A stretch of 55,592 bases of DNA, the filler included, from Jimgerdemannia flammicorona (lineage: Eukaryota): NCBI GenBank assembly GCA_003990765.1. It is 3 parts of 3 records of this genome, joined end to end, with 100 filler letters (N's around TTAATTAATTAA, not from the genome) between each part and the next. Parts side by side here need not be neighbours in the genome. Positions count along the whole stretch, not along the records: positions 18,571 to 37,038 come from RBNJ01002207.1; 2 more parts are not named here. One strand, written 5' to 3'. Positions 18,571 to 51,208 of this stretch are shown here, piece after piece (the first letter of the stretch is position 1; every line of letters starts with the position of its first letter). The position numbers and the translations under genes are program-made. The notes beneath the pieces are model-generated. The model was not told where the DNA came from, ran no database searches, and was given only the letters and a program-made list of their open reading frames with translations.

Positions 18571-18749
18571 AAGGTGTATCTCTTAGACTAACTCAAGTTT
18601 GTTATAAGTAAGTTCTTATTGGAGTACCTTCCCAAGGTCTTATAGTCCTCAAACTTCTTATCTTTAACTGTCTTGTTATCTCTTAGATTGCTTGCAAGGA
18701 AGTGTATAAGTGAAACCAGAACTGACTTTATTTCAGAGGAAATAAGAGG

Positions 18750-22659: not shown

Positions 22660-22864
22660 ACTCTCCCCTTCTTAGCTTTCGACATCCTTGTCAGGGCCTT
22701 CTAATTTAGTTCAGTAGTACTGGGAGAATAGGCTTGCTTTCAGTTTTGCCATTTCTCTAGAGAGTCAGTATTCTTGTCTTGTTTTGCTGAGTTCTTGGTC
22801 TGGTTTGCGATAATTATAATGTTCAGGAGGATAGTGTGTACTGATAGGTGCAGAGTATTTGGTT

Positions 22865-25800: not shown

Positions 25801-28800
25801 AGTTCTTGGGTTCTCCTTTGGATGGTCGGATGGAGATGGCGAAGAGAGGGCATTTCTTGGCCAATTTCTTGAGTTGTAGCTTGTTGATGTAGGTGATCTT
25901 TGGTCTAGGGTCACTAGAGTTGAGTGAGTCCTTTTCGCCTTGTAGTTTGAAGTTGTGGCATCCTTTCTTGATGATCAGAGAATAGTTTACCCAATCAATC
26001 AAGGGGTTCTCTTGTTTTAACCATAGAGTCCCAAGGATGATTTCATTGTCAGGAAGTGGTATGATTTGGAGGGTAACATGTACTCGGTAGTCGCCAATTC
26101 GGAAGGGTAGATTGCGGACTTCTTTGCTGATGACATGTGAGGTTCCATCAGCTGTGGCAACTGCCTGGGTTTGTTGTACTAGAGAGGTGAAAACCTTGAG
26201 TCTGTTGGCTGTTTCCTCATTGATGAAGTTGCCTGAGGCACTACTGTTTATCATAATCTTGACAGGTGCTCCATTGACAAAAGCCTTAAGGGTGAGCAGT
26301 TTGTCTGATCCAATGGTGGTGATTTCAGTTGTAGGAGCCTTTCTTCTATTGGTTCTTCTTTGAGCCAGTTCGTTGACACAAGAGAAGCAATTATCAATCA
26401 TTTGAGAAGAGTACATTCCAATACCATGAGAGCATCGGCCACTTGATACATATCCATCTTTGATCTTCTTGTAGAATTGTTCTTCTTTGCTCATGGTAGG
26501 TTGGGCTGGAGCTTTGTTTGATGAGCCAAATCCTTTGGATCCTCGGATGGTGGGCAGTAGTTCGGGGACTTCCTTGACTGTCAGGGTTGACTCAATTTTT
26601 TCGAATAGGATCTGGGCAATACAGAAACCGATAGGGATCTTGAAGGGTATCCAACTGTGGTTTCGGATGAGGACAATAATTTCGCCTGTGTAATCCTTGT
26701 CAATGACTCCTCCTTCTACTGAGAGTCCTTTCAACACTAGGCTGCTGCAACAGCATATTCTTCCAACATATCCTTCAGGAATTTGGATACTGATTCCTGT
26801 ATAGACTTGCTTGACTTCTCGGTTTGAAACTGTAGCTTCTTTGGCTGCATATAGGTCATATCCAGCTGCTTTTTGACTTCCTTTGGTTGGAGCCTTGGCA
26901 GTTTGCCTTAACTTGACAAAGTCTAGTGTTCTGGTGGTCAGGTTGTTGAGGTGGTGCAGAGTGGTGACAGTTGCTCATGTTGCTGTTTGGGGTTTTTGGT
27001 TAGGGCAGGCACTGGCCATATATCCTGTCTTTCGGCAATAGAAGCATGCTTCACTTCTTCGAAGTTCATTTCTTTCGCCTTCAGTAAGTTTCTTGAAGGT
27101 ACTTGGCTGGGTAGGTTCATGATTTCTGAGTGTCCAAGAGGTGGATGTGGAGGGAGCTCGAGATGTTTCATGCTTGGGTTCTTCTTTCTTGGTTCAAGTT
27201 TTTTCCTTGTTGTTAAATTACCTTTGGGGCAGAATTGGTCCGGCTGTTAGGATTCGCTTGACCATGGTCTTGATTCTTGCCAGGTACCATTGTTGGTAAT
27301 CACAACCAACTGGGTGGCCTTGTTCTCGGATTTTTCTAGTAAGCCATTCAGGCAGGGCATCAAATAAATGGTCTGCTCTTGTACCATTTCATGCTTCATC
27401 ATTGGCAATGTATCCTAAGCCAACAGTGTTCAGGAGTGACTCGAGTTTTATATAGAAGGTTTCAAATTCTTCTTTGCCATGTATATCAAATTTGAGGTTA
27501 TGGAGTTTTACTCGAGATTCAGCGATCATGGTTTCACTGTGGTATTGAGCAATCATGAGTTGTTTGAGTCCAGGGGCTGCAGGATGGGCTCTATATTCTA
27601 GGGCATTATTTGCTGCATTCTGAGCAACTACTGCAGGTCAGGTGTCCCATGTGAGGGGTTTTTCAGGAAGGGTTTACCACCATTCTTCGGCAGGTCCTTG
27701 GAAGAATGTAACAACTCAGTGGATATAGGCTGTAGTGATAGCAAAGAGTTGTTCTAGAGTGTGGTCTTGATTGTTTGTCAGAACGTGGTCAGCAACTCAC
27801 TCATTGGTCCATTGATTGGCTTCGAAGTTGGTGTCAACTATACTAATAAAGCTTTGGACCTCTTATGCAGTACCATTGAAGGTAGATAGGCTCAGATTTT
27901 TGGTAGGTCAGGTCTGTTCGGCTAAGGCAGTAATGGTTGCTGCCATTATAGCTACCTGGGCTGTGAGGTCTAGAATCTGTTGGTTTGCCATATTGTTTAC
28001 TGGAGGTAGTTGGACTACTGGTAGTAGTATTACTGGTACTACTTGAGATACTGGTGCAGAGTGTGAGGGTGTTCTTTGGGTCTGTGTAAGTTGCTGGAGT
28101 AGTATTTGTGGGTCTGGAGTAAGGGCTTGATAGATAACTGTTTGTTGTTGTGTAGGTGTGTTCTGGCCTGATGGAGGTGCATCTTCTTCGGTGGTGTATC
28201 TAGGATCGAATTCAGTGAGATACTCCTCCTCCTCTTCAGTTTGGTCCCCATGTAATTGGGTTTGCTCAGCGTCAAAGTAGATGGAATCAGTTGTATATCT
28301 GATTTCAGATGGACTTAATTCAAAGTCAAGTTCTGGTTCAGTATTGGTTTCAGATTCAGGTAGGGCCATAGCAGGGCCAGCTTCAGGTTCGGGGTCAGGT
28401 AGTTGATGAAGGGTTTCTCTTGCTTCTTCCTTAAGAATATGGCGTGCCTTACTGTTCTGGAATCGGTAGTATAAGGCAGTCTTGGTCCTGGTGTGGTGAA
28501 AGTCGGTAGAGTTGAGCCACTTGGCTACAGAGACTTGGGCTTCATGAGGAACTAAGGCTAGAAAGACTGCTGCTAGTTGTCCTAGGTCGCTCGGATTTGT
28601 GGAGCTGACAAAACTCTTGTTGAGAAGAGTAAAGACGGCTTCTATAAGACCTTCTTCATCTTGACTTGCTGGGTGTAGTGCAAGGAGTTCGGTGAATAGG
28701 GTTTCGCCTATTTGCTCGTTTAATCGGAGTACTTCTTTCTTTGAATGAAGTTTGTCCCACTTATTGCAGGTGTGGAGATCAAATTGTCCTTGTACGTTAG

Positions 28801-28846
28801 GTTCAATTCTCTCCAGATTGTCAGATGGTTCAGGATAAATTCCAGT
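22865..28846 (-). pseudogene. gag-pol: Gag-dUTPase-PR-RT-RNaseH-IN-chromodomain polyprotein of B (in-frame stops)
   Basis: Track ORFs 27908..28369, 25742..26737 (dUTPase + PR), 25385..25639 and 25118..25363 (RT, YIDD), 24161..24532, 23741..23932, and 22865..23611 (IN + chromodomain EYEVEQIL..YLVKWK..TWEP). Zinc knuckle CFYCRKTGYMASAC at ~27005-27050. Confidence 0.94.
26519..26926 (-). CDS. dut: dUTPase domain within the B polyprotein
   Basis: Trimeric dUTPase motifs AAGYDL, TGI, (R)SSL, GGVIDKDYTGEI, IAQI and RGSKGFGSS. Confidence 0.92.
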
Positions 28847-28937
28847 TCAGAGGTTGGGCTTTATACCAACTTGTAGGAATTCTCAGAAGGGTTTGTAGTA
28901 GGTGAGAAAGTGTCTTGAAGCAGAATTGGATTATAAA

Positions 28938-28949
28938 CCACTGCTACCA
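28938..28949 (-). promoter_or_regulatory. PBS TGGTAGCAGTGG of B
   Basis: Lies 3 nt from the 5' LTR end. Confidence 0.88.
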
Positions 28950-28952
28950 AGT

Positions 28953-31014
28953 TGTAAGAGGGTTGCTTTTTAGAGTAACCATTATGTAGTTCTGAAAGGG
29001 TTTTCTGGAAGTTCTGGATTTTCTGGAAGACCGTTTTCTTATGGTCAAGATCAATTTCATATGGAGTACGTCCTCTATGCTTATTAATTTCAAGATCAGG
29101 TTGATGTCTCAACCAAAGTCCTTTCTCGGACTAGTTCTGGATGTTTAGGATTTTCCATATTTCAGGAAGTTCAAGAAACTAAGGCCAGCTTAGTTGAATT
29201 GGTGTATCGCTGCAGACAATACCCAATTAGGAAATTTCGTAACAGGGTTAGGAGTGGGACCTAACAGGGAGCAGATTTACTTAAGAGTGGTTTGTAGATT
29301 ATTAAATAGGTTTATTCGCTATTCATGATATTGCTATACTAGGAGTAGTTGTGTGAAGGGATATTGTGGGGAAGTATTCAGGAATGTTCTTTTGTGTTCG
29401 AGTCTGAAATTCTGAGGTCTGGGGGAGGGGGTATTTATACTAGTGAGGGGCTATCTGGACTATACTAGATATGGATGTAGCACTAAGTGCCTTGCTAAGT
29501 TGGAATACAGTCATATAGTACAAGTGTGATCTGACATATCAAGAGATTGTCTGACTGCTGAGTCAGTTCACAGTCATGTCATACAATGCTAATCTAACTA
29601 TACTATGACTGCTAGGCTATTTATAGGTTTAGGTGCTGTCTGGGTAGTCTTCGATGACATTACTATCAATTGCATCATCTCTAATGAAGTAGTCATCTAG
29701 GAAAAGTGGTTCACAGATTACTTCTCCTTGTTCGCTGAGGTAGTAATACATTGGAACTTCATCTCCATCCCACAGGATAGCATCGTCTGTCTCGTATGCT
29801 GGATAAGGTGTTGGTGGACGAAGGATGGGTGTATTGTCTTCGCTTTCATCAGATTCACTGTCTGCGTACCTTCTATAGGTTACAGCACTATGAGTCACGG
29901 GGTTGTAGTAAGCTGGCGGCTGTGATTCATGTCACTCATACTCAGGTGGCGGAGTTGTTGGTTTGATTTTGAGAGTTATCTGAAGGTACAGGTTGTGTTC
30001 TCTGGTCTCTTCATTGTAGTTGAAATAATCAGGGGTGAACGCAGGTTGGTATTCATGCCAGTGGTCATTGTCCCAATAAGTCTCGTATGTAGTTATGAAC
30101 TGTTATAAGTTCATTGGTAAGGTTGGCGGAGTAATCAGGGTTGGCAGAGATCCTTGGCTAGAGGTCATGTCAGCATCGGAGGGGTCATTGTCTTCTGCTT
30201 CATCTTCATCGAAGTGGATTATATTGTAGATGTCTTTCATAGCATATCCAACTTGGGGCATTTGCAGGATGTGATCATTGGGGTATGGGAAGGTTCTGTC
30301 TGTGGTTTTGACGTACTCGAGGTACTTCTGGTTGAGTTCTTGTATCATGTCATCAATTTGACCGTAGGACAAGGTAGCAACCATTTCACTGATAGTAACT
30401 TGGAGGCGGGGAATAATGGTACTATACTCGTAGAAGAGTTCTTGATGTTTGCGGGCGATGAGCTTCTGGTGTTAAGACATCTGGGTAATATCTGTATCAT
30501 GGTGGTGTTTGACCATGTCTTCCAGGAGGTGGCTGATCTGGTAGTAGCTTGAGATTTGTCTGATTCAGTGGGCCTCACTAAGCATGTTCAGAGCATTTCA
30601 TCAGGCTTCCATGAAGTAGAGGGGTGCTAGGCTATGGATATTCATGAGGGGCAGAGGGGGTGTAGCTCGGTTGACAATAGCATTCCAAATGTCAGCACGG
30701 ATATAGTTGTAGATCTCAGTGGTCATGTTTGTGTGTTTGGAAGTTATGGTTGTTGTTTGTTTTGGTTCTCTTGATTCGATGCATCTCGGTGCTCAGTATA
30801 TATGCATTTAGTCCTGATTGGTAAGATTCCGTTTGTGTAAATCTTGTATTCTGTGACTTCATATTGACTCAGCTTTGTGTGCTGTGACTTTGGTTTGACT
30901 CAGCTTTGTGATCAAGTAGGTGATTTCCAGATTTGTTCAGGGTCACATGTGATTTCAGTGACTTATTCAGAGGGTGACGTATAATTTCGGTAGCTTGGGG
31001 GTTGTGCGCTTACA
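28953..31014 (-). repeat. 5' LTR of B (2062 bp)
   Basis: Intact TGTAAG...CTTACA inverted termini. Confidence 0.95.
29629..30726 (-). pseudogene. LTR-embedded accessory ORF, copy B5'
   Basis: 1098 bp; track ORFs 30103..30384 and 29629..29898 are in frame with the ATG at 30726. Confidence 0.82.
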
Positions 31015-34000
31015 CTTGACTTGTTTCTTTGGCAAAGATCATAGCTTTGGACATACTCCTTGATTTCCTTGAGCATGTTTGGCCAGTAGTAGTCTCATTG
31101 GATATTCTTGATGGTCTTCTCAGTTCCAAGATGGCCAGCTAGTGGGGAGTCATGATGTTCATGAAGAATCTTGTACCATAGTTCAGGGTTGGCAGGAATA
31201 TATACTTTGTCTTGATAGTACATGAGGTTGTCCTTGATGGTGTACTTTTCCTTGAATTCCTTGGTATTCCTTTATAGAACCAGAGGGTCTTGTTCATATG
31301 CCTTCTTGATCTGGTTGAGGAATTCAGGTGCCATGGTGACTTGTAAAATCACAGCAAGGTCAGGTCTTCTTGACAGTGCATCTGGTACAACTAGAGTTTT
31401 GCCAGGCTTGTAGATGATGTTTGGGGTAAAGGTCTGAAGTAATTGGCTCCACTTGGCTTGTTGGTGAGAAAGGGTTGGTTGAGTGCTGATGTACTGAAGG
31501 GACCTGTGATCAGTGATCACATCGAACTCAACTCCTTCTAGATAGTGTTGCCAGGTCTTGAGGGTATGCATAATTGCCAGGAGTTCCTTTTCATGAGTAG
31601 CCAGCTTTTGTTCTGCTGGGGACAGTTTTCTTGACTCAAAGGCAATAGGTCGGTGTCCTTGACCATCATCTTGAGAAATAACTGCACCAATGGCAAAGTT
31701 AGATGCATCTGTAGTGACCATGAACTTCAAGTTTGGGTCCATGTTTCTAAGGACAGGTGCATGGGTCAGGTGGTTCTTGAGTTCTTGAAAGGCTTGTTGA
31801 CAGAAAGCATCCCAGATATAGGGGACATAGAGGTCAGAGTTGGGTTCCTTTTGCAGGAGGTTTATCAAAGATTCTGTGATGCCAGAGAAGTTCTTAATAA
31901 ATCGACAGTAGTATCCAGCCAGACCAAGGAAGGATCTGAGTTCAGTGAGGTTTGCTGGTATAGGCCACTGTTCAATGGCTTGTATTTTCCTTGGGTCTAC
32001 TTGAATTCCTTTGGCTGATACAATGTGTCCAAGGTATTCAACTTGATCCTTGAAAAATTTACATTTCTTGAGCTTTGCATAGAGCTTGTTCTTGCAGAGG
32101 ATCTTGAGGACTTGTTCAATATGCTTGAGGTATTCTTCTTCAGTACTACTGAAGATAAGGATATCATCAATATATACCAGTATGAAGATATACAGCTGAT
32201 CCTTGAAGACAGTTTGCATGAGGTCTTGAAAGGTTGCTGGCACATTGATGAGACCAAAGGCCATGACTAGGAATTCATAGAGTCTAAAGGGTGTCATGAA
32301 GGCAGTCTTGGGTATGTCTTCTGGCTTGATTCGAATTTGGTGATACCCAGAGGTGAGATCAATCTTGGTGAAGTACTTTGCATTCTTGAGGGCATCAAAG
32401 ATTTGGTCTATGAGTGGTAGCAGATAATGGTTTTTGACTGTGATCTTGTTGAGTGCTCGGTAGTCTATACACATTCACAGAGTATCATCTTTTTTCTTGA
32501 CAAATAGGACTGGGGAGCCAAAGGGTGACTTGCTTGGCTGAATGGCTCCTCGCTCAATAAGTTCATTGAGTTCCTTCTTGACTGCTTCAATTTCGAGTGG
32601 AGATATGCAGTATATTTTCTTCTTAGGTATAGCTGTATCAGGTACCAACTTGATTTTGTGGTCATGGTCTCTTGAAGGTGGTAGACCAGGTAGTTTGTCT
32701 GGGAAGACATCCTTGTACTTGTTCAGCAGTAACTTGATGCTTTCACTAATTGATAGCTTCTTGTCTTCTTTCTTGGGTCAGATCAGTACTACAAAGGCAC
32801 AGGTAGCTTTCTTGAGGGCCTTCTTGAACTGAATTGCCAAAATAGTAGCAATTGGAGTTCTCGTCTGAGTCTTGTCTGGCTTGATGGTAATATTGGCTCC
32901 ATCCTGGATCAAGGTGACTTCATTCTTGATCCAATCTATCTGAGGGTTGTGCCATGTAAGCCAGGGTTTGCCTAGGATCAGGTCATGGTCTCCTAGAGGT
33001 GCTACCTCAAAATCTAAATGTTCCCAGTACTTCTGGATCTTGAGGGGAAGTTTAGTGGCAATTGAGTCAATTGGTAAGGTGGTGCCATCTGTGGTGACAA
33101 CTCCACCATTCTTGCCAGCTGGTTTGGTGAGAATCTTGAGCTTGTCGATGAGGTTCTTGTTGATGAAGTTCCCAACAGCTCCACTGTCTATGAGAACATC
33201 TAGTTCTTGTCCCTTGACTAGACCTTTGAAAATGAGTATTGAGTTGGCTCAGTTCTCGGCTATGCTTGCAACTTTGTCAGTGCTGCCAAAGCCTTTCTGA
33301 TCTTGTTTGGTTGAGAGCAGCTTGGTGACTTCTTTGATGACTGGTAGGGTGGCTCACTCCAGAATGAGCTGTGCAATTCTGTCTCCTTCATTGATGGTAT
33401 ATGGTTGGTTCTTGTAGTTGACTAGCAGGACTTGCATTTCGCCTCAGAAGTCAGGGTCAATGACTCCAGCACCAACATCCAATGAGTGCTTGAAACTGAG
33501 GCCAGATCTTGGTGCAATTCTTGCATAATGTTCCTTGGGAATTTCGACTGAAAGGCCAGTTGGAATGAACCTTCTCTCATATGCCAGAATAGTGACTTGC
33601 TGTACTGCTTGAAGGTCCAAACCAATGGCTCCTTCTGACTGTGCTTGAGGGATCTGGGCCTTGGAGTTGACTTGCATGAAATTGAGTACAACTTCTTGTT
33701 CAACTGGTTGACCTTGGGTGTCTTTGGACAGGACCAGAATCCTCTTTGGTTCAGCAGTTTTCTTGGGACATTTAGTTGCAATGTGGCCAGGCTGATGGCA
33801 AAAGAAGCAGGCTCCAGCCTTCTTGAGATGCTCCTTTTCCTCAGGTGTAAGCTTGCCTTTCTTGTTCTTGTCAATGGTGTCTAGGTCCATGGGGGCAGGT
33901 CCAACAGTTCTGACTTTGGGTTCCTCCCTTCTGTGGTGGTTGTTGTTGAAAGGTGGTCTCTTTTGTTCAAAGCAGTGACCATAGGTGATGACATCAAATC

Positions 34001-34727
34001 TATCAGCAATTTTCATTGCTGTATCTAGGTCCTTGGGTTCTTCTAGTTTGACACAAACTCGGGTTTGACCTTTCAGGCCTCAGATGTACTTGTCGACCTT
34101 CTCGTCTTCAGTGACATATGGTAATTCTAGTAGGATTGACAGGAATTGTGCATTGTATGCTTGCACAGACTTGAGTTGTTTGACGTTTGCCAGATGGTCT
34201 CGTGTGGCCTTGGTGCTGTTGACTGGTTTGAATTGGCCTTGAATAGCATCAGAGAATTCACCCCAGGTCTTGATTCGGCCAGAGAATCTGGTGTTCTGGA
34301 CATGATTTTGCCACCAGATTGTAGTATTCCCTTGAAGGAGTGTGGTAGCAAATTGGACTAGTGTTGCTTTTTCCAAATTGGTCAGTTCTCCATATTGCTC
34401 CAATTGGAAAAGCCAGGTGTCAGTAGACAGTCCTCCTCTTTGACGATCAAAGGTGTTGGGCTTCTGAGGCTTGATAGTGACTGCTGTCAGATGTATTGAT
34501 GTCAGTAGAGGTGCGGAGGTATGAGCAGGGGCCTTGCTTTCCTTTCTTTCTATGCATTCTTGAAGTTGAGCAATCTGAGCTAGTGCATTCTGCAAAAGAC
34601 TCTCGATGGCCCTGTTTGACTGAGTAGGGTTTTGCTATTCCTCTTCTTCTTGCTAATTGTACTGATTGTATGAGGTATTGCCTGGACCATAGGTACTATA
34701 TGAAGGATTCCACCCATTGTCCTCCAT
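31015..34727 (-). pseudogene. gag-pol: C gag-dUTPase-PR-RT-RNaseH and N-terminal integrase
   Basis: ORF 34080..34595 (retrotransposon Gag), ORF 33444..34016 (PMDLD, CFFCHQPGHIATKC, dUTPase), protease LIDSGA (~33190), and ORF 31272..32474 (RT YIDD, RNase H TDAS). Confidence 0.94.
33275..33690 (-). CDS. dut: dUTPase domain within the C polyprotein
   Basis: GAIGLDL, PTGL, IAPRSGL, GAGVIDPDF*GE, GDRIAQL and KGFGSTD. Confidence 0.92.
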
Positions 34728-34781
34728 AGTGTTGTAACTAATATCTTGAAAGGTGTCTTGATAAGGCTAGGTGTAACTTCA

Positions 34782-34793
34782 CCACTGCTACCA
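34782..34793 (-). promoter_or_regulatory. PBS TGGTAGCAGTGG of C
   Basis: Same 12-mer as B's PBS, 2 nt from the LTR. Confidence 0.88.
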
Positions 34794-34795
34794 AG

Positions 34796-35199
34796 TATAA
34801 TGGTTCTAGTTTCTAAATGAGGAAGCGACTAGTTCTGGTGGTCCTAAGTAGCTCAAAGAGATACTAAGGATTCAAGTGTTCTCGAAGGATTTCTGAGAGA
34901 AAATATTCTGAGACTTTATTCATAAGAACAAAGAGGATATTTATACAAGATCTGAAAGAAGGATCCGGAAGGATCTGAGAAATCAAAGGAAAATGCCAAG
35001 AGGAAAGTTCTTGGCAAAGATGACAAATGATGACAAATAAAGTTCTACAAGTTTCCAGGACATTCAGTGACTAACTAAATAAGTACTAGTTAATGCTCGG
35101 CACCAAGAAGGGGATTTCTAAGTGTGCGGAAAGTGCCGGAAGGTTATAGAATATTCAAAAAAGACAGAGAAAAGAAATAAACTATGCTAAAATGTTACA
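34796..35199 (-). repeat. 5' LTR of C
   Basis: Direct repeat of 18750-19153. Confidence 0.95.
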
Positions 35200-37038
35200 A
35201 GAGGGGTATTTATACAAAATATAATTCAATGGTTGCTAAGATATAAAGCTAAATATAAATTCCAATAACTAAAACTACTAAGTTCCAGGGTCGGCACTGA
35301 TAGTTGTACAGGTTCAGGATGCTGGTATTATTTAGTGTCACATCAAAATGCCAGTGCTGGAACAATTTCGCATCACCTCAGAATACCAGTGCTGGCATTA
35401 TCCAGTGTTATATGAGAATACTGGCGCTGGCATTATCCAGTGTAACAAAGAACTTAGAGCAGAAAGTTCAGGATCATGGGGGCTTCATCATCATCATCAT
35501 CATCATCACTGAAGGAGATGAGATCCGCGAATTCATCATACAGGTCGCATGTTTCATATACTTTGCGTGCTTCGGGTATATCGCGCGGGATGACGTCATT
35601 GCCGATGACATCATCACGTTCGGCTGTGGTGGGGAAATTGGGAACAAGATCTGGAGCTCTCCAGTCTATGAGGTTCTCTTCTACAAAATAGGGGACAAAT
35701 ATGGGGTCTTGGGGAGATCTAACCCAGATGCTTGGGCCTTGGAATACTGAGATCAATCCTTGTAGGAATTGGTCTGGGTTGTCCTGGAGGATGGGATGCT
35801 AGAAGTCTTCTACTTTATTGCTGTTGAGAGTGATAGTGGACTGAGCTTCTGTGACCGATCAGCTCCTTTCTCTGCTACCTTACCAGTCACAAGGTTTGGT
35901 AGATGACCTTCCGAGTCCCCTTTCCCCTATTATTACCCCCTCTACCTCGGGTTGGTTTGCTGTGCCTGCAGGGGCATGGTGGGAGGAGGGCAATGGTGAT
36001 GAGTTGCCCCTTTATCGGTGTCAGATCGGTGCTTCCTCCACTTTTTCGCGGATTCTGGTGCCTTCGGCTGCGTCTGAGGTATACCCATTTTGGTGCGGCA
36101 CCTTCTTCCTTTTGCCGTCGCCAACAAGGAGTTGTCTCGGTGTGTCTTGGGCTATGTAGGGAGTCGGCTGACCTTGGGCGTCAAGTGCTCAGTGTAGGTT
36201 ACCTGCAGGTCTTCAGTGCCTATAGTGGGGCTCTCTGGCTTTGGCGAGCTTCCTGGTGAGCGCAGTTCTGGCGTAGGTGACTGTTTTTCGGGTGTTGTCG
36301 GGATGGGAGAGGAGATGGCCATCACAGATAGGAGGAAGGGCGATTATGGTGAATCAGTAGGGTGCCAGGCTGGGGGTGGTCATCAGGGCTGGGGCAGGTG
36401 CTGCTTCAGTGGGGCCTTTTGATTGATGCGGCGCGGTTAGGTAGTAGGTGTCACTATCGGCTTCTTTTGGCAGTTAGTGGAGTTGGGCCCCAGTCATCAG
36501 GAGGGGTCAGGAGGCCTGAGGCTACCCATTTCAGGCATCTTGGCTGCACTCAACTAGAACTGGGAGCTGACACGGCAATGTGATCAAGGCCTGTAGGCTT
36601 GAGTAGTGGGGTATTGGGGATTTCCTCCCACCTCACGTATAAGTCCTTTACTCACCTCAACTGGGAGAACCAGGCCCTACCCACCGTATTGTGCTTTGAG
36701 GAGGGTTTTTTCTTTGCCTGTCATTCTCTTTGGGGTGGCAGGGGCTATTCTATTCAGCTCGGGCATGGCCTTGTACATATGTTGGGTTCTCGAGTATGCG
36801 CTTTCAGTTGTTGGCATATGGTTGGGTTTCCCCTGGTGGTAGGGAGAGCATGGTGCACAGAATGAGGTGCGGGCACATAACAGTCCTGCTGCGCCTGGCA
36901 CAGTCAAGCTGCTGGACAATAGCTAGCCTAGGTTAATGGGAGGGCAGTGCTTGGTGGGTGGTGGGGGAGGGTTTTGGCCTATATAGTCTAGGTTCCCTTC
37001 CAATAAAATTCTGCGGGACATGAGTCCGTTAAAAAAAA
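35200..37038 (-). mobile_element. LTR-like region of family D (continues at 18571-18749), with TATA box, short tandem repeats and an accessory ORF
   Basis: GTATAAATACCCC on minus at 35203-35215. GTGCTGGCATTATCCAGTGT-type repeats at ~35290-35445. Upstream ORF homologous to the family E LTR ORF. Termini are not visible because of the gaps. Confidence 0.65.
35454..36930 (-). pseudogene. Family D accessory ORF (stop-interrupted; C-terminal 100 aa = track ORF 35454..35756)
   Basis: C-terminus PILQDNPDQFLQGLISVFQG..VPY..NLIDWRAPDL..FADLISFS..PMILNF aligns with the family E LTR ORF. The 5' limit is uncertain. Confidence 0.6.
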
Positions 37039-37138
37039 NNNNNNNNNNNNNNNNNNNNNNNNNNNNNNNNNNNNNNNNNNNNTTAATTAATTAANNNNNN
37101 NNNNNNNNNNNNNNNNNNNNNNNNNNNNNNNNNNNNNN
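37039..37138. other. Assembly gap with TTAATTAATTAA linker
   Basis: N run. Confidence 0.95.
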
Positions 37139-37377: not shown

Positions 37378-40263
37378 TTCTAAATCATGGTTAATACTCT
37401 AGAACCCTGAGCACTACTGTAAAACCAGTAGTCTCAGTAGTCCAAGATTTGGCTGAGACTATTTCTGATCATATCCAAATGACAAGGAATGCTCTCATAG
37501 AAGTACAAGACTACCAGACTAAGTATGCCAACTTGAAGTAAAGAGAAGCCTCCTATAATATTGGTGATATGGTCATACTCAGAATAGACTATCTTCACTC
37601 TAATACTCTAGCCCAGCAACCATCTAAGAAGCTTCATGCCAGAAGGATTGGACCATATAAGATTGTGAAAAAAGTCAGTAAAATCAACTATAAGCTGTAA
37701 CTCCCTACTAATATCTAAGTTCACCTAGTATTCCATATCAGTCAACTGGTAGACTACCATGTGAATCTATTTCCTGAGCATATAGTTTCATCACTACTCC
37801 TAATTAGGATCAATGATCACAAGGAATTTGAAATTGAGAAAATACTTGACCACAAGATCTGCAAATATACTAGAATAGCTAAGTAGTATTATCTTATCAA
37901 GTAGAAGGATTACTCTACTCATGATGCCACCTGGGAAAAAGAAGAAGTACTGGAGAATATATATGAAGCTCTTCAGAACTATATGGAAACACTCACTCCT
38001 CAGTAAAGAAGGGAACTACAGCTCTAAAAATAGTGAGTATATAGCAAATATAGTGATAATACATATTTATCTAGGATATATAATATCAAATATTATGAAG
38101 AAAAAGAATACTATAATTAGCCAATAAGACAAAAGAATGTTCAGATGAAGAACTCTCCTGAACTAACCCAGCAGAGTTTAGCAAAATATATTTGAACAAC
38201 TCTATTTATGCCATCTGTATCATCTTTATTGAAGAATGATAGATGTTTTATATGGAACTCAAGAAAGCCAACAATCTTAGAACCAGACTCAAGTTCATCT
38301 ACATAATAGATATTATTACTAGAAATTGCCTCAGATTACAAGAAAGTCTATTTTCAAGAGGTTCAAACCCCCAGCTATAATATTGAGAGCCCTTGCCCTA
38401 GATAAGAATAGCCAGTCCTTGGAATATACATCAATGAAACAAAAAAAAAAAAAAACTAAGACCTGTTAACTCTGTGTAACCATAACTGCAAAGTGATAAT
38501 ATCTGTAAAATCAGTAATCTTCATATGACTAGCACATGCTCTGCTTATAGTAACAGATCATATATACCCCTAGGAATGTGATCAAAATGAAGTTATACCA
38601 GACAGGTGAATAAGCATATATATCCAGAGAAGAAACACCTTGTAACCCTCTTCCTCCTTTCCTCTACACAAAGAAAAAATAATATAAAAATACCTATCAT
38701 CTGCCACCAATCTACCCACTACAGCCAGCTCCTGTGAAGCCAAGTGGACAGCCTTTTTGGACATATCCAAATCACTATCTAGAGAAGGAACTGCTGCTCT
38801 AAGGCCCTTAATCTCACCAGCTAGGACCTAGGACACTATGTTCTCAACTGCCACAAAATTATAGAAAGGTCCTACCTTGCTACTAGCTGTCTAGATATCT
38901 GGTATGAATATGAAATTGGACACCAACTCTGCCAGCAGACATAAGACCAAACTGCTGAACAGATCATAGACTGAGTCCACTAAGACAGATATAAGCAAAG
39001 ACTAGTCAAGAAGGTCTACCAAATCATGAAGTATGCACCCTTTGCAATCTCTAACCTTATCTATGTATAACTGAAGGATTTTTAGAACCTCTCCTACTCT
39101 GAGATTAATGCTTTGGAAATTAAGATCATACAAGAAGTTCACTCTTGAATCTCTCTCCTAAATAACAACTCAGACCAATAAATCTAAGGTCTCTCTGACC
39201 TCTTTAAAGGACTGTCCATCTGAATAGATATCCCCTGTATAATGAGCAAGTACCCTATATAGATGGCCTCAACCACATTAGATAGAGAACTCCTACCCTA
39301 CTATCTGCCTCAGCTCAAGAATCATTTGGAGACCTAATTGACTTCTCCTCTCTTAACATCAAGCCATCATCAATTATCCCTCCTATTCTTGGTATAAAAG
39401 ACTATAATAAGAGAGATAAAGTGGAGAATTTCCCAATTTCTCCCTTAGTTCTTAATTTCCAGATCAATAAGAATAGTGATCTCTTTTAAGGGTAGAAGAA
39501 TATAATAAAGTGAATAGATGAGATGTGACAATGAATAAAGATACAATGAGTGATCATATGACTCTATAATAATAATATTACAATCAAGCAATATATAACA
39601 AATAACATATAAATATAACAAATAAGTAGGATGTGAATGATGCAAATAATGTAAATGATGAGATAAATAATATCTAGCTTATCCCCAGCAATCAGTCTGT
39701 AGTAAATTACTGTAGTAACTAATTATTACATAATAAAGATCTTGATCACAAAGGTCATGATCACAAACTCACCATAGTCACCCAAATTAGTCATTTATAC
39801 TTAGTCGGAAATCATGAACCAATCTGTATAAATACCCCCCATATTTTTATCTAAAATAAAGATAGTTTTAGTTTAGTCCTTAATATAAGAATGAAGTCCT
39901 CTTTTCATATATACATTCTCCTGAGTCTTAGTAATGACATCTAAGTGACTCTAGTATTTCTGACTAAACTCTAGAAGTCTAGCTAACTTCTGCCAGAACT
40001 AAGACTGGTATATAATTACAAAGACTTAAGGAAAACTCCTTATTGAATCTGAATTCCAAGGCAAATTCAGTCTATATATAGCAAAGAACAAGTCTCTTAC
40101 AACTATGATTGATAAGAAGAGTACTACCACTATAACTATTTTCAAGCAAGCACTTCCTCAAACTGAAGACTTCTTGGTATACTTATGTACTAAGTCCCTA
40201 AGTAATATCTTATTTTTCTAATTATTTAAGGATAAGAGAGGGGTAGAAATAACAATTATTATA
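37378..40263 (+). mobile_element. Chromovirus family E copy E1: integrase C-terminus and chromodomain, plus ~2.2-kb 3' LTR (38040-40263)
   Basis: GPY motif and chromodomain (EFEIEKILDHK..HDATWEK). Duplicate of 41770-44390. LTR bounded by TATAGC and ATTATA (decayed TGTAGC/GCTACA); TATA at 39826-39838. Confidence 0.8.
38140..39489 (+). pseudogene. Family E LTR-embedded accessory ORF, copy E1 (5' limit approximate)
   Basis: Hand translation: ..IWYEYEIGHQL..KQRLVKKVYQIMKYAPFAISNL..NLSYSEINAL..FGDLIDFS..PLVLNFQ..DLF*. Confidence 0.7.
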
Positions 40264-42559: not shown

Positions 42560-43654
42560 AAAATACATTTGAACAACTCTATTTATACCATCTGTATCAT
42601 CTCTATTGGTGAATGATGGATACTTCATATAAAATTCAAGAAAGCCAACTATGTTAGCATATGCTCTGCTTACAGCAACAGATCATATGTGCCTCTAGGA
42701 ATGTGATTAAAATGAAGTTACACCAGATAGGTGAATAAGTATAAATACTCAGAGAAGAAATACTTTGTAACCCTCATCTCCTTTTCCTCTCTACAAAGAA
42801 AAAGCAATATAAGAATGCCTGCTACTTACTGCCAAACTGCCTGCCACAGCTAGCCCCTACTAAGACAAGTAAACTGCCTTTTTGAATATATTCAGATTAC
42901 TATTCAAGGAAGGAACTACTGCTCTGAGGCCCTTAATCTCACCAGTCAGAACCTAGGACACTATGTTCTCAATCACTATAAAGTCATTAAAAGGGCTTAC
43001 TGTACTACCAGCTACCTAGAAATCTAATATAAATATGAAATTAGATACTAACTCTACCAGTGAACATAAGACTAAACTGCCAAACAGATTATGGACTAGG
43101 CTTATTTAGATAGGCATAAGCAAAAACTAGCTAGGAAGTTTCACTAAATTATGAAGTATACACCCTTTAAAATTCCCAATCTTACTTATATATAACTAAA
43201 GAATTTCCAGAACCTCTCCTATTCTGAGATTGATGCATTGAAAATCAAGATCACACAAGAAGTCTACTCTTAGATTCCTCTCAAGTTTACTGACTGCAAA
43301 CTCTACTAGAGTCTCCTCCTGAATGATAACTCCGACCAACAGATCCAAGACCTCTCTGACCTCTTTGAAGGACTACCTATCTGAATGGATATCCTTCTGC
43401 ATAATGAACAAGAACTCTATATAGATAGCCCTAATTACATTAGATGGTGAACTCCTATCCTATAGTCTGCCCTAATTTAAGAATTATTTGAAGATCTCAT
43501 TGACTTCTCCACCCTTGATATTGAGCCATCAATAACTACCTCTCTCACTATTGACATGAAAGACTATAATGAAGTAGAGGATGAAGTAGAGAATTCTCCA
43601 ATCCCTCTCTTGGTTCTTAATTTTTAGATCAATAAGGATAGTGATCTCTTTTAA
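42560..43654 (+). pseudogene. Family E LTR-embedded accessory ORF, copy E2 (internal deletion relative to E1)
   Basis: ..LDRHKQKLARK..IPNL..NLSYSEIDAL..LLNDNSDQQIQDLSDLFEG..FEDLIDFS..PLLVLNF..DLF*. Confidence 0.7.
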
Positions 43655-44390
43655 GAGGAGAAGGATGTAACAGAATGATATAAATAAGTAAATAGACAAG
43701 ATATAATAATGAAGAATAATATAATAAACAATCACATGACCCAGCAGTGATGATATTATAATTGAGTGATATATGATGAATAATATATAAATAATGAATA
43801 TAACAAATGAACAGAATATAAATGATATAATAAATAATATCTAGCTTATCTCTAGCAACTGGTACCACAGTAAATCACTGCAGTAACTAATTATTACCTA
43901 ATAACCCATATTATAAAGGTTCTGATCACAAAGGTCCTGATCACAAAGATCATAATCACAAACTCACCATAGTTACTAAATTAGTTACTTATACTTAACA
44001 AGAAATCATAAACCAACTTATATAAATACCCCCCATATTTCCATCCAAAATAAAGATAGTTTTAGTTCAGTCCTTGATATAAGAATCAAGTTTCTCCTCT
44101 ATATACACATTCTTCTAAGTCTTAGTAATGATACCTAAGTAACTCTAGTATTTCCAACTAAACTCTAAAAGTCTAGCTAACTTTTACCAGAACTAAGGCC
44201 AGTATATAAATCACAAAGACTTAAGGAAACTTCTTATTGAACCTGAATTCCAAGGTGAATTCAGTCTGTGCACAGCAAGAACAAGTCTCTTACAACTATG
44301 GTTGATAAGAAGGATACTACCACTACAACTACTTTTAAGCAAGCACTTCTTTATACTGAAGACTTCTTGGTATACTTATATACTAAGTTC

Positions 44391-47065
44391 CAGTAGAGGA
44401 AGAGGGCTCAGTAGGAGCCAGGAGAGTGAACCCAGAGCTAGTGTCAAAGTGAACAGAAGATATGTAGGAGAGCATATATAAGAGGGATGAATAAAGAATG
44501 TAATCAAAAATGCATCAGCCATTTATTGCTATGTAAAAATGCAGTCCTCATATACAAAATATGATATCCCAAAAGAGAGAATATGCCACAACTTGGGGTG
44601 AACTAAATTAGAAACCACATAACTACCAGAGATAAGTAGAGATAAAGAGAGAGCCAATCCTAGTTGTAAGATAAAAATCACAAACAAACACAAATAAAAC
44701 AAATCCAAATCAAGATTAAAAAACATCCACAGACTCTAGAGAGATGAGTATGAACAAGGAATAAGGCCAAAACAGAACAAACTATAGTGAGCTTGAGTGA
44801 AGCAAGGGGCTGAAGGTAGTGGAGGGGAGTAGAGTGAAGGCTGAGACTCCAGAGCAAGCATGAGAGGGAGCAAGGATGTTTTTTAATTCTCTTTAGAAGA
44901 ACTGAAGGCACCAGAAGGTGATGAAAATACAAAATGAGAGTGATAGATTAGAGAAGAAATAGAAGAAAGATATAAATATTAATCAGAGGGCATTAGGATA
45001 GAGATGAAAGTCCATAGCATAAATACTCAGAGTACATCAGAAGTGATGATGGAATCCAAGATGGGATGAGGACACTGGGGGAGAACCATACCAGAGAGAA
45101 GTTTAAGAATGAGAGACCTTCTCCTTCCCTCTGACTTTTTTTGAAGGTAGTGAGCCTGACAAGTGAGAGCATACTCCATCAGAGTGCCAGACCTTGTAGC
45201 CATAGGCTTTCATGCAGCCCTTACACTTGGGGGCATGAGTAGAGGAGACAGAGGAAGAATCAGCAGAAGAAGCAGAGAGAGAGTAAGCAGTCAAAGGGGC
45301 AGCAGTGCAAGGGACACCACTATGGGGGCAGACAGACTTAACTGGGTGCCAATAGATATAGTGAAAGTGACTAGAGCAGACAGCACAGAGCCAAGCCCCA
45401 ACAGAGTGAGAACCAAGTTGGCTGCCATACTTGGGGGCAGGGGGAATGGAGGAGGAGGCCTTGGCAGGGGAGAGAGACCAGGAAGAGGCTGACAAAGCCT
45501 TATTGAGCTTAGTGGGGGTCTTGACAGAGACCTTGGCAGTGGCAGTGGCAAAAGAATGAACCTTGATATGAGCAGCAGTATGAGCTTTAGTATAGATGGT
45601 CTCAGAGACTGAAACCTCAGAAGAGGTGAGCAGGGGAGCAGTGGTGGTAGTACAAGCAGCAGTAGTAGTATGTGACATTTCCTGCTCATGAAGATAAGTG
45701 ACAAAGGAGGTATCAGCAAGGAGGAAGCAACAAACTGCATCAATATCAGTGGTGACAGAGAGAATATCTTGGATAGTAAAGCTATAAAAAGAGACAGAAT
45801 CTACAAAGCAGGAGAAGGTGAGGGCTATGAAAGAGGCACAAGTATAGTGGAAGAAGATAGAAGCAGTGGTAGCAGTAGCAGTGGCAGCATCAGCAGTAGC
45901 AAGCTTGGCAGTGATAGAGGCAGTGTGAACCTCTTCAAAGAGGGCTTGATGGCAGACCTTGGGGAGAATGGAATAGTAAATGGCAGGTATAGTAATAATG
46001 TTGACATTATAGCAGAGATAAGCCTCCTTAGCAGAGAGGGCAAGGACTGACCAAAACTGAGAGAGGAGCAGATGACCAGATGGATAAAGGTCCAGAGAGA
46101 GTGAAAGAATGGTGGATGAGACATAGGTCTTGAATGAGATAGTAGCAGAGATGAAAGTGGGGGGAGGGGGAGAAGGAAAAACCTCATCCATAACCTTGTT
46201 AATGGAGATAGAGGCCCTGAGGGCAGACAGTATAACAGTAGAGGAAGAGGGCCCAGCAGTAGCCAGAGGAGTAAATCCAGAGCCAGTGTCAAAGTGAATA
46301 GAAGATATATAGAAGAGTATGTATAAGAAAGATAAATAAAGAATATAACTGAAAATATATCAGCCATTTATTGCTATATAAAAATACAGTCCTTATATAT
46401 AAAATATGACATTCCAAAAGAGAGAATGTACCACAACTTAGGAAAAACTGAATTAGGAACTATATGACTGTCAGAGATAAGTAGAGATAAAGAGAGAGTC
46501 AATTTCAGTTGCAGGATAAAAATCACAAACAAATATAAATAAAACAAATCTAAATTGAGATTAAAAAATATCCACAGACTCTGGAGAGATGAGTGTGAGC
46601 AAGGGGTGAGGCTGAAACAGAGCAAGTCACAGCAAGCCTGAGTGAAGCAAGGGACTGAAGACAATAGAGGGGAGCAGAGTGAAGACTGAGACCCCAGAGC
46701 AAGTATGAGACCCTGGAGAGGACAAGAATGTTTTTTAATCTTGATTTGGATTTGTTTTATTTGTATTTGTTTGTAATTTTTATCCTGCAACTGGGATTGG
46801 TACTCTCTCTTTATCTCTGCTTATCTCTGATAGTCATGTGGTTCCTAATTTGGTTCACTTTAAGTTGTGATGCATCCTTCCTTTTAGGATATCATATTTT
46901 ATATATAAGGACTGTGTTTTTATATAGCAATAAATGGCTGATGCATTTTTAGTTCCATTCTTTATTCATCCCCCTTATATATACTCTTTCACATATCTTC
47001 TGTTCCCTTTGACACTAGCTCTGGGTTCACTCCCCTGGCTCCCACTGGGCCCTCTTCTTCTATTG
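44391..47065 (-). mobile_element. Unclassified element with ~340-bp terminal inverted repeats, an internal ~500-bp direct repeat and one zinc-finger ORF
   Basis: X at 44391-44728 and 46236-46573; inverted X at 46726-47065; spacer S at 44729-44873 and 46574-46725. Confidence 0.7.
45103..46191 (-). CDS. 362-aa Ser/Ala/Thr-rich protein with two C-x2-C-x9-H-x4/5-C motifs (Gag/ORF1-like)
   Basis: Uninterrupted ORF containing CAVCSSHFHYIYWHPVKSVC and CKGCMKAYGYKVWHSDGVC. Confidence 0.6.
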   Translation of the reverse strand: MDEVFPSPPPPTFISATISFKTYVSSTILSLSLDLYPSGHLLLSQFWSVLALSAKEAYLCYNVNIITIPAIYYSILPKVCHQALFEEVHTASITAKLATADAATATATTASIFFHYTCASFIALTFSCFVDSVSFYSFTIQDILSVTTDIDAVCCFLLADTSFVTYLHEQEMSHTTTAACTTTTAPLLTSSEVSVSETIYTKAHTAAHIKVHSFATATAKVSVKTPTKLNKALSASSWSLSPAKASSSIPPAPKYGSQLGSHSVGAWLCAVCSSHFHYIYWHPVKSVCPHSGVPCTAAPLTAYSLSASSADSSSVSSTHAPKCKGCMKAYGYKVWHSDGVCSHLSGSLPSKKVRGKEKVSHS

Positions 47066-48850: not shown

Positions 48851-49501
48851 CTAGTATGATATAGTACTTATCAGTAGTCACAAAAAGTCATCTGATTGGA
48901 TTTGAACCCCCAGTCTGCAACCTGGAGGACAATGTCTTAACAGAGTGATCAACTTTCCATCTAAAGTCAAAAGAAGAAAATTTCAAGCTAATAAAACTCC
49001 ATATTTTTCCATATGATCAGTACATACTCTGCTTATAGTAACAGGTCATGTATTTCTCAGAAATGTGATCAAAATAAAGTTACACTAGCCAGATGAATAA
49101 GTATTAATACTCAGGTCAAGGATACTCTACAACCTCTATCTCTTTTCTCCTCTTCAAAAAAAAAACAATATAAAGAATTCCTACTGCCTACTGCCAAACT
49201 GCTTATCAAAACCAGTCTCTTCTAAGCTAGATTGATCACCTTTTTAGATATATATATTCAGATCACTATCCAAGGAAGGAACTGCTGCTCTGAGGCTCTT
49301 AACCTCACTAGTTAAGACCTAAGACACTATGTTCTCAACTATAAAGTTAAAGATAGGGCTTATCTTGCTACTAGCTGTCTTAAAATCTGGTATGAATATG
49401 AAATTAGATACCAACTTCTCCAATAAGTACAAGACCTAACTACTAACCAAGTTACAGACTAGGCTCACCTGGACAGATATGAGTAAAGACTTACTATAAA
49501 G

Positions 49502-50217
49502 AGCCTGGAGTGCTGAGGTATGATAGTGGATACTGCTAAAGAACTGGGTGGTCTAGTGGTATACGCTATAGAGAAATATTATGCTCAACTTCCACTCAGG
49601 ACACCTTGTCAAGGGGAGAAGCTTTGACTGTAAAGAGTGCCACAATGTGGGACAAGAGGGGAGATTTATACAGATATCAGAATATTGGCTAGGAGAGTGT
49701 GAGGTACTTGGTGACTTTTGGCTAATAGTTGGAGATTGATTGGATATCATATATAGGAAAGATAGTAAGCAGGGTCAGTGGGAGGATTTGAGGGATAGAC
49801 TGGTGGGGGGGGTGGGAAAGGAGTGGCTTACTTTAGATTAGATATTGGCAGTTTGGGTAGGGTTGGTAGATCACTAGTTGTTTGTTTTTGAGGAAGAGAG
49901 AAGCCTGGGTTTGGGGATGAGACTGTTGAGATGAAAAGGGATAATAGAGGACATTATGGTAGGCTGGTGGCTTGGCTGGGGTCTGCAGAGTGGTCAGAGG
50001 TGTTATTTGGTAGAGAATATCTATAGACAGAGTAGAGGGAGAATTGGAGTTGTAGATGATAAGATAGTCTTCAAATATGAAAGTATGGGGGGGAGACTCT
50101 TTTATGAGGATTGAGTAGTGGGAGAAAATCCTATAACTATAACTATAACAATAGACTGGTAATAAATTGCAAAGTCCAAGTAACTATAAAAAGAAAAAAA
50201 AGAAAAAAAAAAAAAAA
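49502..50217 (+). mobile_element. 5'-truncated LINE (same family as 51209-55592) with poly(A) tail and a TSD of at least 14 bp
   Basis: Aligns with ~54910-55592. AATAAA then an A-rich tail. TSD GACTT(A/G)CTATAAAG at 49488-49501 and 50218-50231. Confidence 0.92.
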
Positions 50218-51208
50218 GACTTGCTATAAAGGTTTATCAAATTATATAGCATATATCTTTTACAATCTCCAATCTCACCTATGTATAACTGAAGGACTTC
50301 CAGAGTCTCTTCTTCTCTAAAATTAATATATTTAAGATCAAGTTACCAAAGAAGCTCATTCCTGGATCATCCTCAAGTCTACTAACTGTGAACTCTACTG
50401 AAGCCCTCTCTTAAATGACAATCTAGACCAATGGCTTCAAGGTCTTTCTGATCTCTATAAAAGACTACATATCCAAATAATATCCCCAGGTATGATTAGC
50501 AAGTTATCTATCTAGATGACCCTAACTATATTAGATAGAGGACCTCTATATTATTATCTACAGATACTCAACAACCATTTGCAGACCTCATTGACTTCTC
50601 TATATTTAATACTAAGCTATAGCAACTACTCTTCTAATTACTAGTAGAGAAGATAACAATAATGAGATAAATAAGATAGAGAATGTCTCAACCTCTCTCT
50701 TAGTTCTCAATTTTCAAATCAATATAGACATTGACTTTTAAGAGAGAAAAGATATAATAGAATAAGTGCAAGCAAACAGATGAGATATAATAAATGATCA
50801 TATGACTAATAATGATATTATAATTGAGTATAATATATAATGATGAATATAATGAATAAAATATAAATAATATGAATAATCCAGATAAAACAATATCTAG
50901 CTTATACCCAATAATCAGTGCTACAGTGTAATAGAACGAACGAGCAAGCGAACAGATGAGATGTGATGAGCAATCATGTGACCCAGCGATGATGTCATCA
51001 TACGATCGAGCACGACATATGACGAACGAACGAACAATGTGAAAAACGATATCCAGTTTATCTCTGACAACCGGTGCTGCAGCAATTGTTACCACAGTAG
51101 CTGATCATTGCCTAGTAATTGAGATCCTGATCACAAAGTTGTTTTTGCCAAAAACCACCTGACAAAGGTCACAATCACAAACCTCATTATAGATACCAAA
51201 TTAGTCAC

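Follow-up and report, generated by a model that had tools for sequence, protein, structure and literature searches.

An uncharacterised accessory gene conserved among related Ty3/gypsy chromoviruses of Jimgerdemannia flammicorona and located inside the long terminal repeat in one family

A stretch of 55,592 nucleotides from the genome of Jimgerdemannia flammicorona (NCBI GenBank assembly GCA_003990765.1), made of three parts of three records joined end to end with filler and hereafter called the window, carries at least three families of long terminal repeat (LTR) retrotransposons (A/B, D and E) with related accessory open reading frames (ORFs) upstream of the same TATA motif. The frame of family D, at 35454-35798 on the minus strand (within the part taken from RBNJ01002207.1, positions 18,571 to 37,038), raises the question of whether such ORFs are assembled from interchangeable modules or are the remains of one gene. 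An initial annotation had favoured the former, and proposed a mix-and-match system in which A/B would carry module 1 and an acidic tail, E modules 1 and 2, and D module 2 only. Our analysis showed instead that "module 1" and "module 2" are the N-terminal and central parts of one gene encoding 250-340 amino acids (aa), and that the D frame is very probably the 3' part of a dead copy of this single accessory gene of about 250-340 codons. The gene is uncharacterised and conserved, and it is found in sense 3' of pol in a group of related dUTPase-encoding Ty3/gypsy chromoviruses.

As far as the sequence itself is concerned, the initial annotation was accurate, including in its assignment of the ORFs to LTR elements. 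The translation of 35454-35798 (minus strand) starts with HPILQDNPDQFLQGL and ends with DDDDDDDEAPMILNFLL and a stop codon, for a total of 114 aa, and the motif GTATAAATACCCC is present on the minus strand at 35215-35203, 238 nt past the D stop codon, where about 240 bp had been stated. With up to 2 mismatches, this motif occurs 14 times in the window against 1.2 times expected. The arrangement of ORF, spacer and TATA motif is indeed shared, the spacer measuring 238 nt in D, ~180-190 nt in A/B, 336-365 nt in E, and 176 nt in L002, one of the metagenomic loci described below. The E sequences also read as quoted: 43310-43654, in the copy E2, gives SLLLNDNSDQQIQDLSDLFEGLPI, a stop, MDI...PLLVLNF, a stop, INKDSDLF and a final stop in one frame, and the corresponding part of the copy E1 (39150-39489) needs frameshifts. 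D and E2 can be aligned gap-free over their first 51 residues, as had been noted for about 50 residues, with 16 identities by hand count; compared alone with the three E copies of the window, the 114-aa D frame gave E=0.001-0.2.

Further evidence came from relatives of the D frame outside the window. A word search with the 114-aa frame gave 7 relatives (3 of 10 candidates in one search and 4 of 159 in another). The D sequence is the C-terminal end of all 7, and in the longer ones, namely P0004 (247 aa), P0005 (271 aa), P0006 and P0007, it is preceded by W-EYEIG and KKIHQ-FRHAPWSIPNL, that is, by module 1. Residues 127-247 of P0004 are 82.6% identical to the window D copy over 132 aligned positions, and P0004 also aligns to E1 over its residues 1-173, to E2 over residues 1-245 (so that E holds both modules, as annotated), and to window positions 135->13 over residues 1-41. 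A profile built from D-type proteins only (A1), with 20 shuffles of the six-frame translation as a control, scored 78.2 bits on each of E1 and E2 (independent E-value 1.8e-25), the best shuffle scoring -0.6, and its match spans both halves of the ORF (positions 5-138 in E1 and 5-165 in E2); the likeness between D and E to which attention had been drawn is therefore homology. An exhaustive profile search of 1.84 billion representatives, in a library poor in annotated eukaryotic genes, gave 5 clusters only, among them the E-type proteins P0008 and P0009 (342 aa), in which the order of parts is the same. The scan of metagenome contigs provided 2 short loci only, both with intact frames, i.e. L001 (E-type, 291 codons) and L002 (D-like, 323 codons, followed by GTATAAATACCCC); in both, in-frame stops are present 19-21 codons ahead of the conserved MPA start. 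Viral contigs, scanned with the alignment A2, gave 91 pattern matches and 0 relatives. The window's E copies and the intact D- and E-type copies found elsewhere (P0004, P0005, P0009, L001 and L002) all have the two halves, arranged in the same order.

The window D copy is without module 1 because another repeat breaks its ORF at 35853. The features of this copy, and of the second D-type fragment of the window, are the following.

35454-35798, minus strand: 3' part of the accessory ORF of the D copy, last 114 codons and stop, corresponding to about residues 145-247 of P0004
35203-35215, minus strand: TATA motif GTATAAATACCCC, common to the A/B, D, E and X LTRs and to L002
35216-35453, minus strand: spacer from the D ORF stop to the TATA motif, with two direct copies of ACACTGGATAATGCCAGC; not alignable with the L002 spacer
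35799-35801, minus strand: in-frame stop private to the window D copy, with another base at 35800 in other contigs
35802-35852, minus strand: 17 more codons of the D ORF upstream of the private stop; family homology stops at 35852/35853
35862-37038, no strand assigned: repeat Y, abundant and unrelated, which takes the place of the 5' half of the D ORF and reaches the linker gap
18750-35199, minus strand: element X, a dUTPase chromovirus with no accessory ORF; 405-bp LTRs 95% identical, CCTCT duplication, element AB2 nested inside
18571-18744, minus strand: continuation of the D LTR past the X insertion, holding AATAAA and cut by the linker gap
13-198, minus strand: second D-type fragment, first 62 codons of the ORF (MPAAHQ...), 75.8% identical to residues 1-62 of P0005, downstream of a D-type pol

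At position 35800, nearly all the contigs of other sequencing runs have the other pyrimidine, which gives the Trp codon of P0004 (by depth, 638.2/647.8 in run X1, 56/56 in run X2 and 45.4/45.4 in run X4). Two contigs from other samples that match the D ORF cease to fit at 35853, though their records run on, and the contigs fitting repeat Y diverge at 35860-35862, where they have loose ends. Element X is inserted in D between the TATA motif and AATAAA, with the target duplication CCTCT at 35200-35204 and 18745-18749, and the insertion was confirmed by contigs of three other runs (X1, X2 and X4), which connect 35200 straight to 18744, and by loose ends at 35199. Because X was inserted just past the D TATA box, the gag frame at 34083-34634 belongs to X and not to D. 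The claim that D has module 2 only could not be upheld, considering that P0004 and P0005 hold module 1 followed by module 2, that the window D copy is broken, and that 62 N-terminal codons of a D-type ORF are present at 198->13. More generally, fragments of one gene in nested, decayed elements can mimic shuffled modules.

Repeat Y is GC-rich (54% GC), of a type not recognised and without a Pfam match; in soil-metagenome contigs, its summed depth is mostly 1100-2900 per bin in run X1. At the other end of the window, a run of A on the plus strand (T on the minus strand) at positions 1-12 cuts the D-type ORF after about codon 62, and may be an insertion tail or a contig end. The linker gaps, at 18471-18570 and 37039-37138, each consist of N44-TTAATTAATTAA-N44, a linker with stops in all six frames, and adjacency across them is uncertain.

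The other copies of the ORF in the window, and the A/B elements that contain some of them, are listed below.

42815-43654, plus strand: E2, whole ORF, with ATG kept, several internal stops and no frameshift, followed directly by AAGAGGAGAAGGA and then TGTAACAG
38690-39489, plus strand: E1, ORF copy with start codon lost, stops and frameshifts
49177-50744 (end approximate), plus strand: E3, ORF copy interrupted by an insertion of ~0.8 kb
21275-22372, minus strand: A/B-type ORF of ~365 codons, in pieces of 187 and 142 aa, inside the AB2 3' LTR (20609-22659)
29629-30726, minus strand: A/B-type ORF copy
3554-4651, plus strand: A/B-type ORF copy
12140-13237, plus strand: A/B-type ORF copy
3266-13804, plus strand: AB1, Ty3/gypsy element
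20607-31014, minus strand: AB2, with 2.05-kb LTRs 92% identical, polypurine tract AAGAAGGGGAGAG, TG..CA ends, primer-binding site and target duplication TCAAG

The map of the window, drawn from self-comparison and Pfam, is that of a nest of Ty3/gypsy elements. Pfam domains in AB2 are protease, RT_RNaseH, SH3_Tf2-1 and Chromo, and X contains gag, dUTPase, protease, reverse transcriptase (RT)/RNase H and SH3. The dUTPase was detected in AB2 (26519-26899, minus strand, E 4e-32), in X (33447-33662, minus strand, E 2e-16) and in AB1 (7379-7648, plus strand, E 7e-21), and in AB2 and X it is located between gag and protease. Domain order, LTRs, TG..CA ends and 5-bp duplication are those of chromoviruses, an assignment that for D and E concerns the pol pieces only. 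In X, the ~320 nt from the chromodomain to the polypurine tract (19154-19485, minus strand) have no match to the ORF profile, and X is therefore a close structural relative without the accessory gene.

D and E must be regarded as separate families, and D as no subfamily of E, because their pol pieces are only 32-34% identical: the D-type element at 1-3265 (RT 3126->2029, integrase 1898->1140) shows 34% identity to E2 in RNase H and 32.5% in the integrase core, and the suspicion that D might be a mere subfamily of E was thus dispelled. The RT of the same D-type element is 36-41% identical to those of X and A/B. The ORFs of D-type and E-type are 25-41% identical to each other, a degree similar to that of the RNase H and integrase pieces compared, and because ORF and pol pieces are similarly diverged, the data would fit inheritance of the gene by D and E from a common ancestor. 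A gag/protease partner for the D-type pol was sought at 13805-18470 and was not found there.

The relationship with A/B is more distant. The protein P0011 shows that the A/B ORF begins at MTTEIY, and P0012 unites the two A/B frames (187 and 142 aa) in a single ORF of ~365 codons. When aligned with hhalign, the N-terminal 117 columns of P0011 are colinear with the D/E profile (E=3e-4, probability 40%), and for the rest of the ORF, the C-terminal 247 residues, no homology to D/E could be demonstrated (E=0.45). A/B thus appears weakly homologous to D/E over the N-terminal ~120 residues, with a C-terminal region that would be divergent or replaced in that one lineage. The description of A/B as module 1 plus a tail may be kept for the N-terminal part, and not for the modular system that was built on it. 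All four A/B LTR copies have a stop at one same codon (22315-22313, minus strand, in AB2), where the intact P0011 has Arg (NRA in place of N-stop-A); it seems that a single mutable site was hit repeatedly, or that the change predates the divergence of the copies.

That the frames are genes was examined by counting, in pairwise comparisons only, the differences at codon positions 1/2/3. Between the AB2 3' LTR and the AB1 5' LTR, these are 35/16/70 of 187 each in the first part of the ORF (part a) and 28/13/34 of 142 each in the second (part b), against flat counts of 23/17/16 (~115 sites each) in the LTR before the ORF and 14/21/15 (~172 sites each) in the LTR after it. The comparison of L002 with D gave 55/38/73 of ~130 in the C-terminal part and 15/12/29 of 62 in the N-terminal part, and that of L001 with E1 gave 104/68/124 of ~250. 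Between the 5' and 3' LTRs of AB2, the counts are 15/8/16 of 187 in part a and 12/4/16 in part b. The excess at the third position is confined to the ORF and to comparisons between elements. In addition, the spacer after the stop is not alignable between D and L002 apart from the TATA motif, and frames of 247-342 codons remain intact, their start and stop conserved, in sequences only 36-56% identical to P0009. Because third-position differences predominate, because the spacer cannot be aligned, and because frames are intact in diverged copies, the sequence comparisons indicate that the ORF is, or was, protein-coding and evolved under protein-level constraint.

The composition of the proteins gives some indication of what this gene might do. 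In 5 of 5 full-length proteins examined the tail is acidic, with 2-4 K/R vs 18-26 D/E, and basic residues outnumber acidic ones in the segment ahead of the core, from 13 K/R vs 6 D/E in P0005 down to 8 vs 7 in P0009, where the bias is weak. Judged by eye, F-x-[DN]-L-I-x-F and P-x-x-L-N-F are recurrent motifs of the tail; resemblances of the acidic tail to SUMO-interaction, Atg8-interaction and clathrin-box motifs, likewise noted by eye, are given no weight here. In 13 of 14 family proteins the best 19-residue Kyte-Doolittle mean does not exceed 1.05, the exception being P0002 with 1.78 in a non-conserved stretch; hydropathy therefore gave no signal peptide or transmembrane segment in these 13, and the accessory protein is not env-like because it has no membrane segment. 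Pfam gave no family at E<=1 beyond chance-level matches for the ORFs, the PDB sequences no match at E<=10, and the ESM Atlas no lead (nearest clusters score <=0.83, Atlas model pLDDT, predicted local distance difference test, 0.35). Going by composition and position, our tentative guess is that the protein regulates the element in trans or serves it as an adaptor; it would have a net-basic N-terminus, a helical core (about residues 55-225 of P0009) and an acidic, probably disordered tail with hydrophobic motifs, resembling an acidic activation or adaptor domain.

It should be noted that a number of observations speak against one conserved gene with such a role. All nine copies or fragments of the window (2 D, 3 E and 4 A/B) are broken and dead; the two D fragments do not overlap and are located in different contigs of the scaffold; and the family is tiny in the databases, where none of the 5 clusters has a name beyond "hypothetical protein". 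Homology between A/B and D/E is modest, considering that, besides the hhalign probability quoted above, the A2 profile gave 4.4 and 1.7 bits, and A1 -1.5 and -2.6 bits, within the shuffle range. Position 2 is least changed also between the two LTRs of one element (AB2), and part of the codon periodicity is therefore mutation bias. AlphaFold2, run on alignment A2 (9 sequences), predicted helices in the first half and the second half poorly, with a mean pLDDT of 39.5, and because Pfam and PDB gave no match, the functional guess is limited to composition and position. Taken with the stops or truncation of every window copy, the poor predicted structure and the lack of a known domain might suggest that the frames are not genes at all but homologous non-coding LTR sequence, open by chance in places. 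This appears extremely improbable, because the third-position excess occurs inside the ORF only and between elements only, and is repeated in the D-type and E-type comparisons, because long frames stay intact at such low identity to P0009, and because alignment succeeds in the ORF and fails in the flanking spacer.

The mix-and-match alternative, in which independent LTR families would combine separate modules, has in its favour that the window D copy shows module 2 only, that A/B shares just the N-terminal region with D/E, and that the order of motifs differs, RDDVIGNDVIP being found in D vs RDDAIDGDVI at the end of the A/B ORF, and an acidic run and LPINL in mid-A/B. However, module 1 is present in the full-length D-type proteins, the D copy is physically broken and its N-terminal part is found at the other end of the window, and D and E have the same architecture, colinear across the whole ORF, so that only A/B departs from it, which needs one replacement or strong divergence; we consider this alternative very unlikely. 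A third possibility is that the ORF is a captured fragment of a host gene, spread with one retrotransposon lineage. Extra ORFs of LTR elements are sometimes transduced host sequence, according to passages of PMC7264820, and there are no relatives of this ORF among known retroelement proteins. On the other hand, the 5 clusters found among the 1.84 billion representatives are all of the same short ORF type (even if in a library with few annotated eukaryotic genes), and both recovered loci have a retroelement context, namely the TATA motif after the L002 ORF, and a purine tract with TGTAAT in L001; capture from the host is therefore improbable, and a single gene belonging to the elements is preferred.

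If the coding sequence belongs to the elements, the next question is how it is expressed, and whether it is located inside or outside the LTR. A TATA-like box is present 65-87 nt upstream of the ATG in D-type, E-type and 2 of the 4 A/B copies: TATAAAAG at -87 in the D element, -80 in L001 and -65 in L002, TATAAATA at -75 in E2, and TATATATA at about -80 in the two A/B copies. AATAAA is found 12-16 nt past the main TATA in X, D, E1, E2 and L002, and not in A/B. The TATA-like box before the ATG, together with the AATAAA after the main TATA, suggests that an LTR can give rise to a separate transcript of the gene.

The A/B gene is inside the 2-kb LTR. The ORF is found in both LTRs of two elements, and starts 287-290 nt inside each of the four LTRs; in AB2 it runs 22372->21275 within the LTR 22659->20609, stopping 180 nt short of the TATA at 21094. 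If this TATA is taken as the U3/R border, the gene is in U3, upstream of the LTR TATA. The D gene, too, is probably inside the LTR, judging from the following feature, found ~230 nt upstream of the D-type ATG at 198.

433-478 (478->433), minus strand: polypurine tract and LTR-start module, AGGAGGAAGA followed by TATAATAG

This module resembles the proven LTR starts of X and A/B (by eye, unscored), and it is a point against an LTR location in D that the LTR start is inferred from a single module compared by eye. Past the D stop there is only a decayed look-alike, resembling TAAG...TGTTACAC and no longer purine-rich. E1, E2, E3 and L001 have a good copy of the module (purine tract and TGTAAC/TATAAT) right after the stop codon, matching the proven X LTR start AAGGAGGGGGAGA followed by TGTAACATT. 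For E, the module after the ORF would place the gene internally, and the fact that the homology of E1, E2 and E3 sets in together near 42650 would place it in an LTR; the upstream sequence of L001 is not alignable with E1-E3. Just before the D-type polypurine module, at 478-558 (minus strand), a short frame MPAHKYHFSTPFQRLWGQQIFQDWTNE, closed by a stop, echoes the start of the ORF (MPA...IFQD) with similar spacing. This frame (MPAHKY...IFQD) may be what is left of an earlier copy of the gene in internal position, on a by-eye reading that a MAFFT alignment did not resolve.

An extra ORF in the internal region, between integrase and polypurine tract, is known from many plant elements, and the D and E gene could be an ordinary one of this kind, embedded in the LTR in A/B only. 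The purine tract and TGTAAC/TATAAT directly 3' of the stop in E1, E2, E3 and L001, as at the X LTR start, and the look-alike past the D stop would agree with this. However, the best copy of the module in the D-type element precedes the ATG, the tract after the D stop is not purine-rich now, and the homology of E1, E2 and E3 starts in all three upstream of the ORF, E3 having no integrase directly before it. We regard an internal location in D and E as a real possibility, though not the expected one. We suggest that the gene may be flanked by two similar priming tracts, the families differing in which tract sets the LTR. Quite speculatively, a once-internal accessory gene of a chromovirus lineage may have been engulfed by the LTR through a shift of plus-strand priming from the polypurine tract after the gene to a duplicate tract before it, resulting in a self-contained cassette. 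In such a scheme both tracts would persist in E, the downstream one would be gone from D, and the 2-kb LTR of A/B would be the end state. Every LTR, including 5' and solo LTRs, could express this cassette, made up of TATA-like box, ORF, main TATA and AATAAA, and its product, a trans-acting regulator or adaptor, might be supplied to the whole family, so that short-LTR relatives without the gene, such as X, could use it.

Some known systems are comparable in part. The sag gene of mouse mammary tumour virus is an ORF inside the U3 of the LTR, and Sag is a membrane glycoprotein. As in sag, the coding frame of A/B (and of A/B only) is wholly inside the LTR, upstream of the main promoter; in contrast with sag, there is no sequence relation (no Pfam or PDB match) and no hydrophobic segment, and host and element class differ. 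The tas/bet genes of foamy viruses are 3' accessory genes expressed from an internal promoter, and Tas has an acidic activation domain; the present gene would resemble them in its 3'-terminal position, in a possible separate promoter ahead of the ATG and in the acidity of the C-terminal region of its product, but no sequence similarity was found, and the comparison is an analogy only.

Extra sense ORFs situated after pol and before the 3' LTR are a familiar feature, and passages of the review PMC7264820 place such additional ORFs (aORFs) in the internal region; in this review the wording "in/within/inside the LTR" is absent. A phrase search for ORFs inside retrotransposon LTRs gave no occurrence of these phrases in the literature covered. 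The accessory gene is like aORFs in being an extra sense frame 3' of pol (aORF-3S), in most copies of the family and with no function assigned, and was found as such in 3 of 3 E copies, both D fragments, 4 of 4 A/B LTRs, L001 and L002. It differs in that the A/B copy is inside the LTR and not in the internal region before the polypurine tract, that the elements are chromoviruses with dUTPase, and that the protein has no membrane segment. Fungal chromoviruses bearing dUTPase, some with an "add. ORF" of unassigned function, are described in the passages available of PMC2864245; compared by description only, these elements are likewise Ty3/gypsy with chromodomain and dUTPase, some having an unexplained additional ORF, but a dUTPase between gag and protease, as found here, is not among the three placements listed there for Postia elements. 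The passages available of PMC5408684 report that LTR retrotransposons of bdelloid rotifers share captured extra ORFs across diverse elements, a precedent for one extra ORF common to different families; here it is the common descent of related families, rather than capture between unrelated elements, that explains the sharing.

LTR retrotransposons commonly carry extra genes, almost none of which has a known role. The present gene is conserved across families whose RNase H and integrase are only 32-34% identical, has no recognisable domain, and in at least one family is embedded in the LTR with a putative promoter of its own. If LTRs by themselves can express a protein, even solo LTRs and dead elements could continue to supply the family, and how long an LTR is would depend on gene content and not only on regulatory sequence.

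Some further features of the window may be mentioned. Sequence resembling a primer-binding site (CTTGGTATAC..., CTTTGGTTGAGA...) follows the LTRs of E1, E2 and AB1, even apparent 3' LTRs (40150-40200, 44340-44390, 5183-5240 and 13769-13825), and hints at tandem LTR-internal-LTR arrays or recombinant copies. The CpG observed/expected ratio is 0.01-0.5 in the retroelements vs 0.98 in 14000-18470, which points to methylation-driven decay confined to repeats; a signature of repeat-induced point mutation was considered and rejected, (CpA+TpG)/(ApC+GpT) being 1.2-1.6. An open frame of 418 aa without a Pfam match is present at 45106-46359 (minus strand), flanked by direct and inverted repeats (44391-44887, 46236-46739 and 47062-46728). 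Finally, a non-LTR retrotransposon occupies 52157-54652 (plus strand) in a block of 53% GC; it comprises an RT frame of 624 aa and an endonuclease/exonuclease/phosphatase piece.

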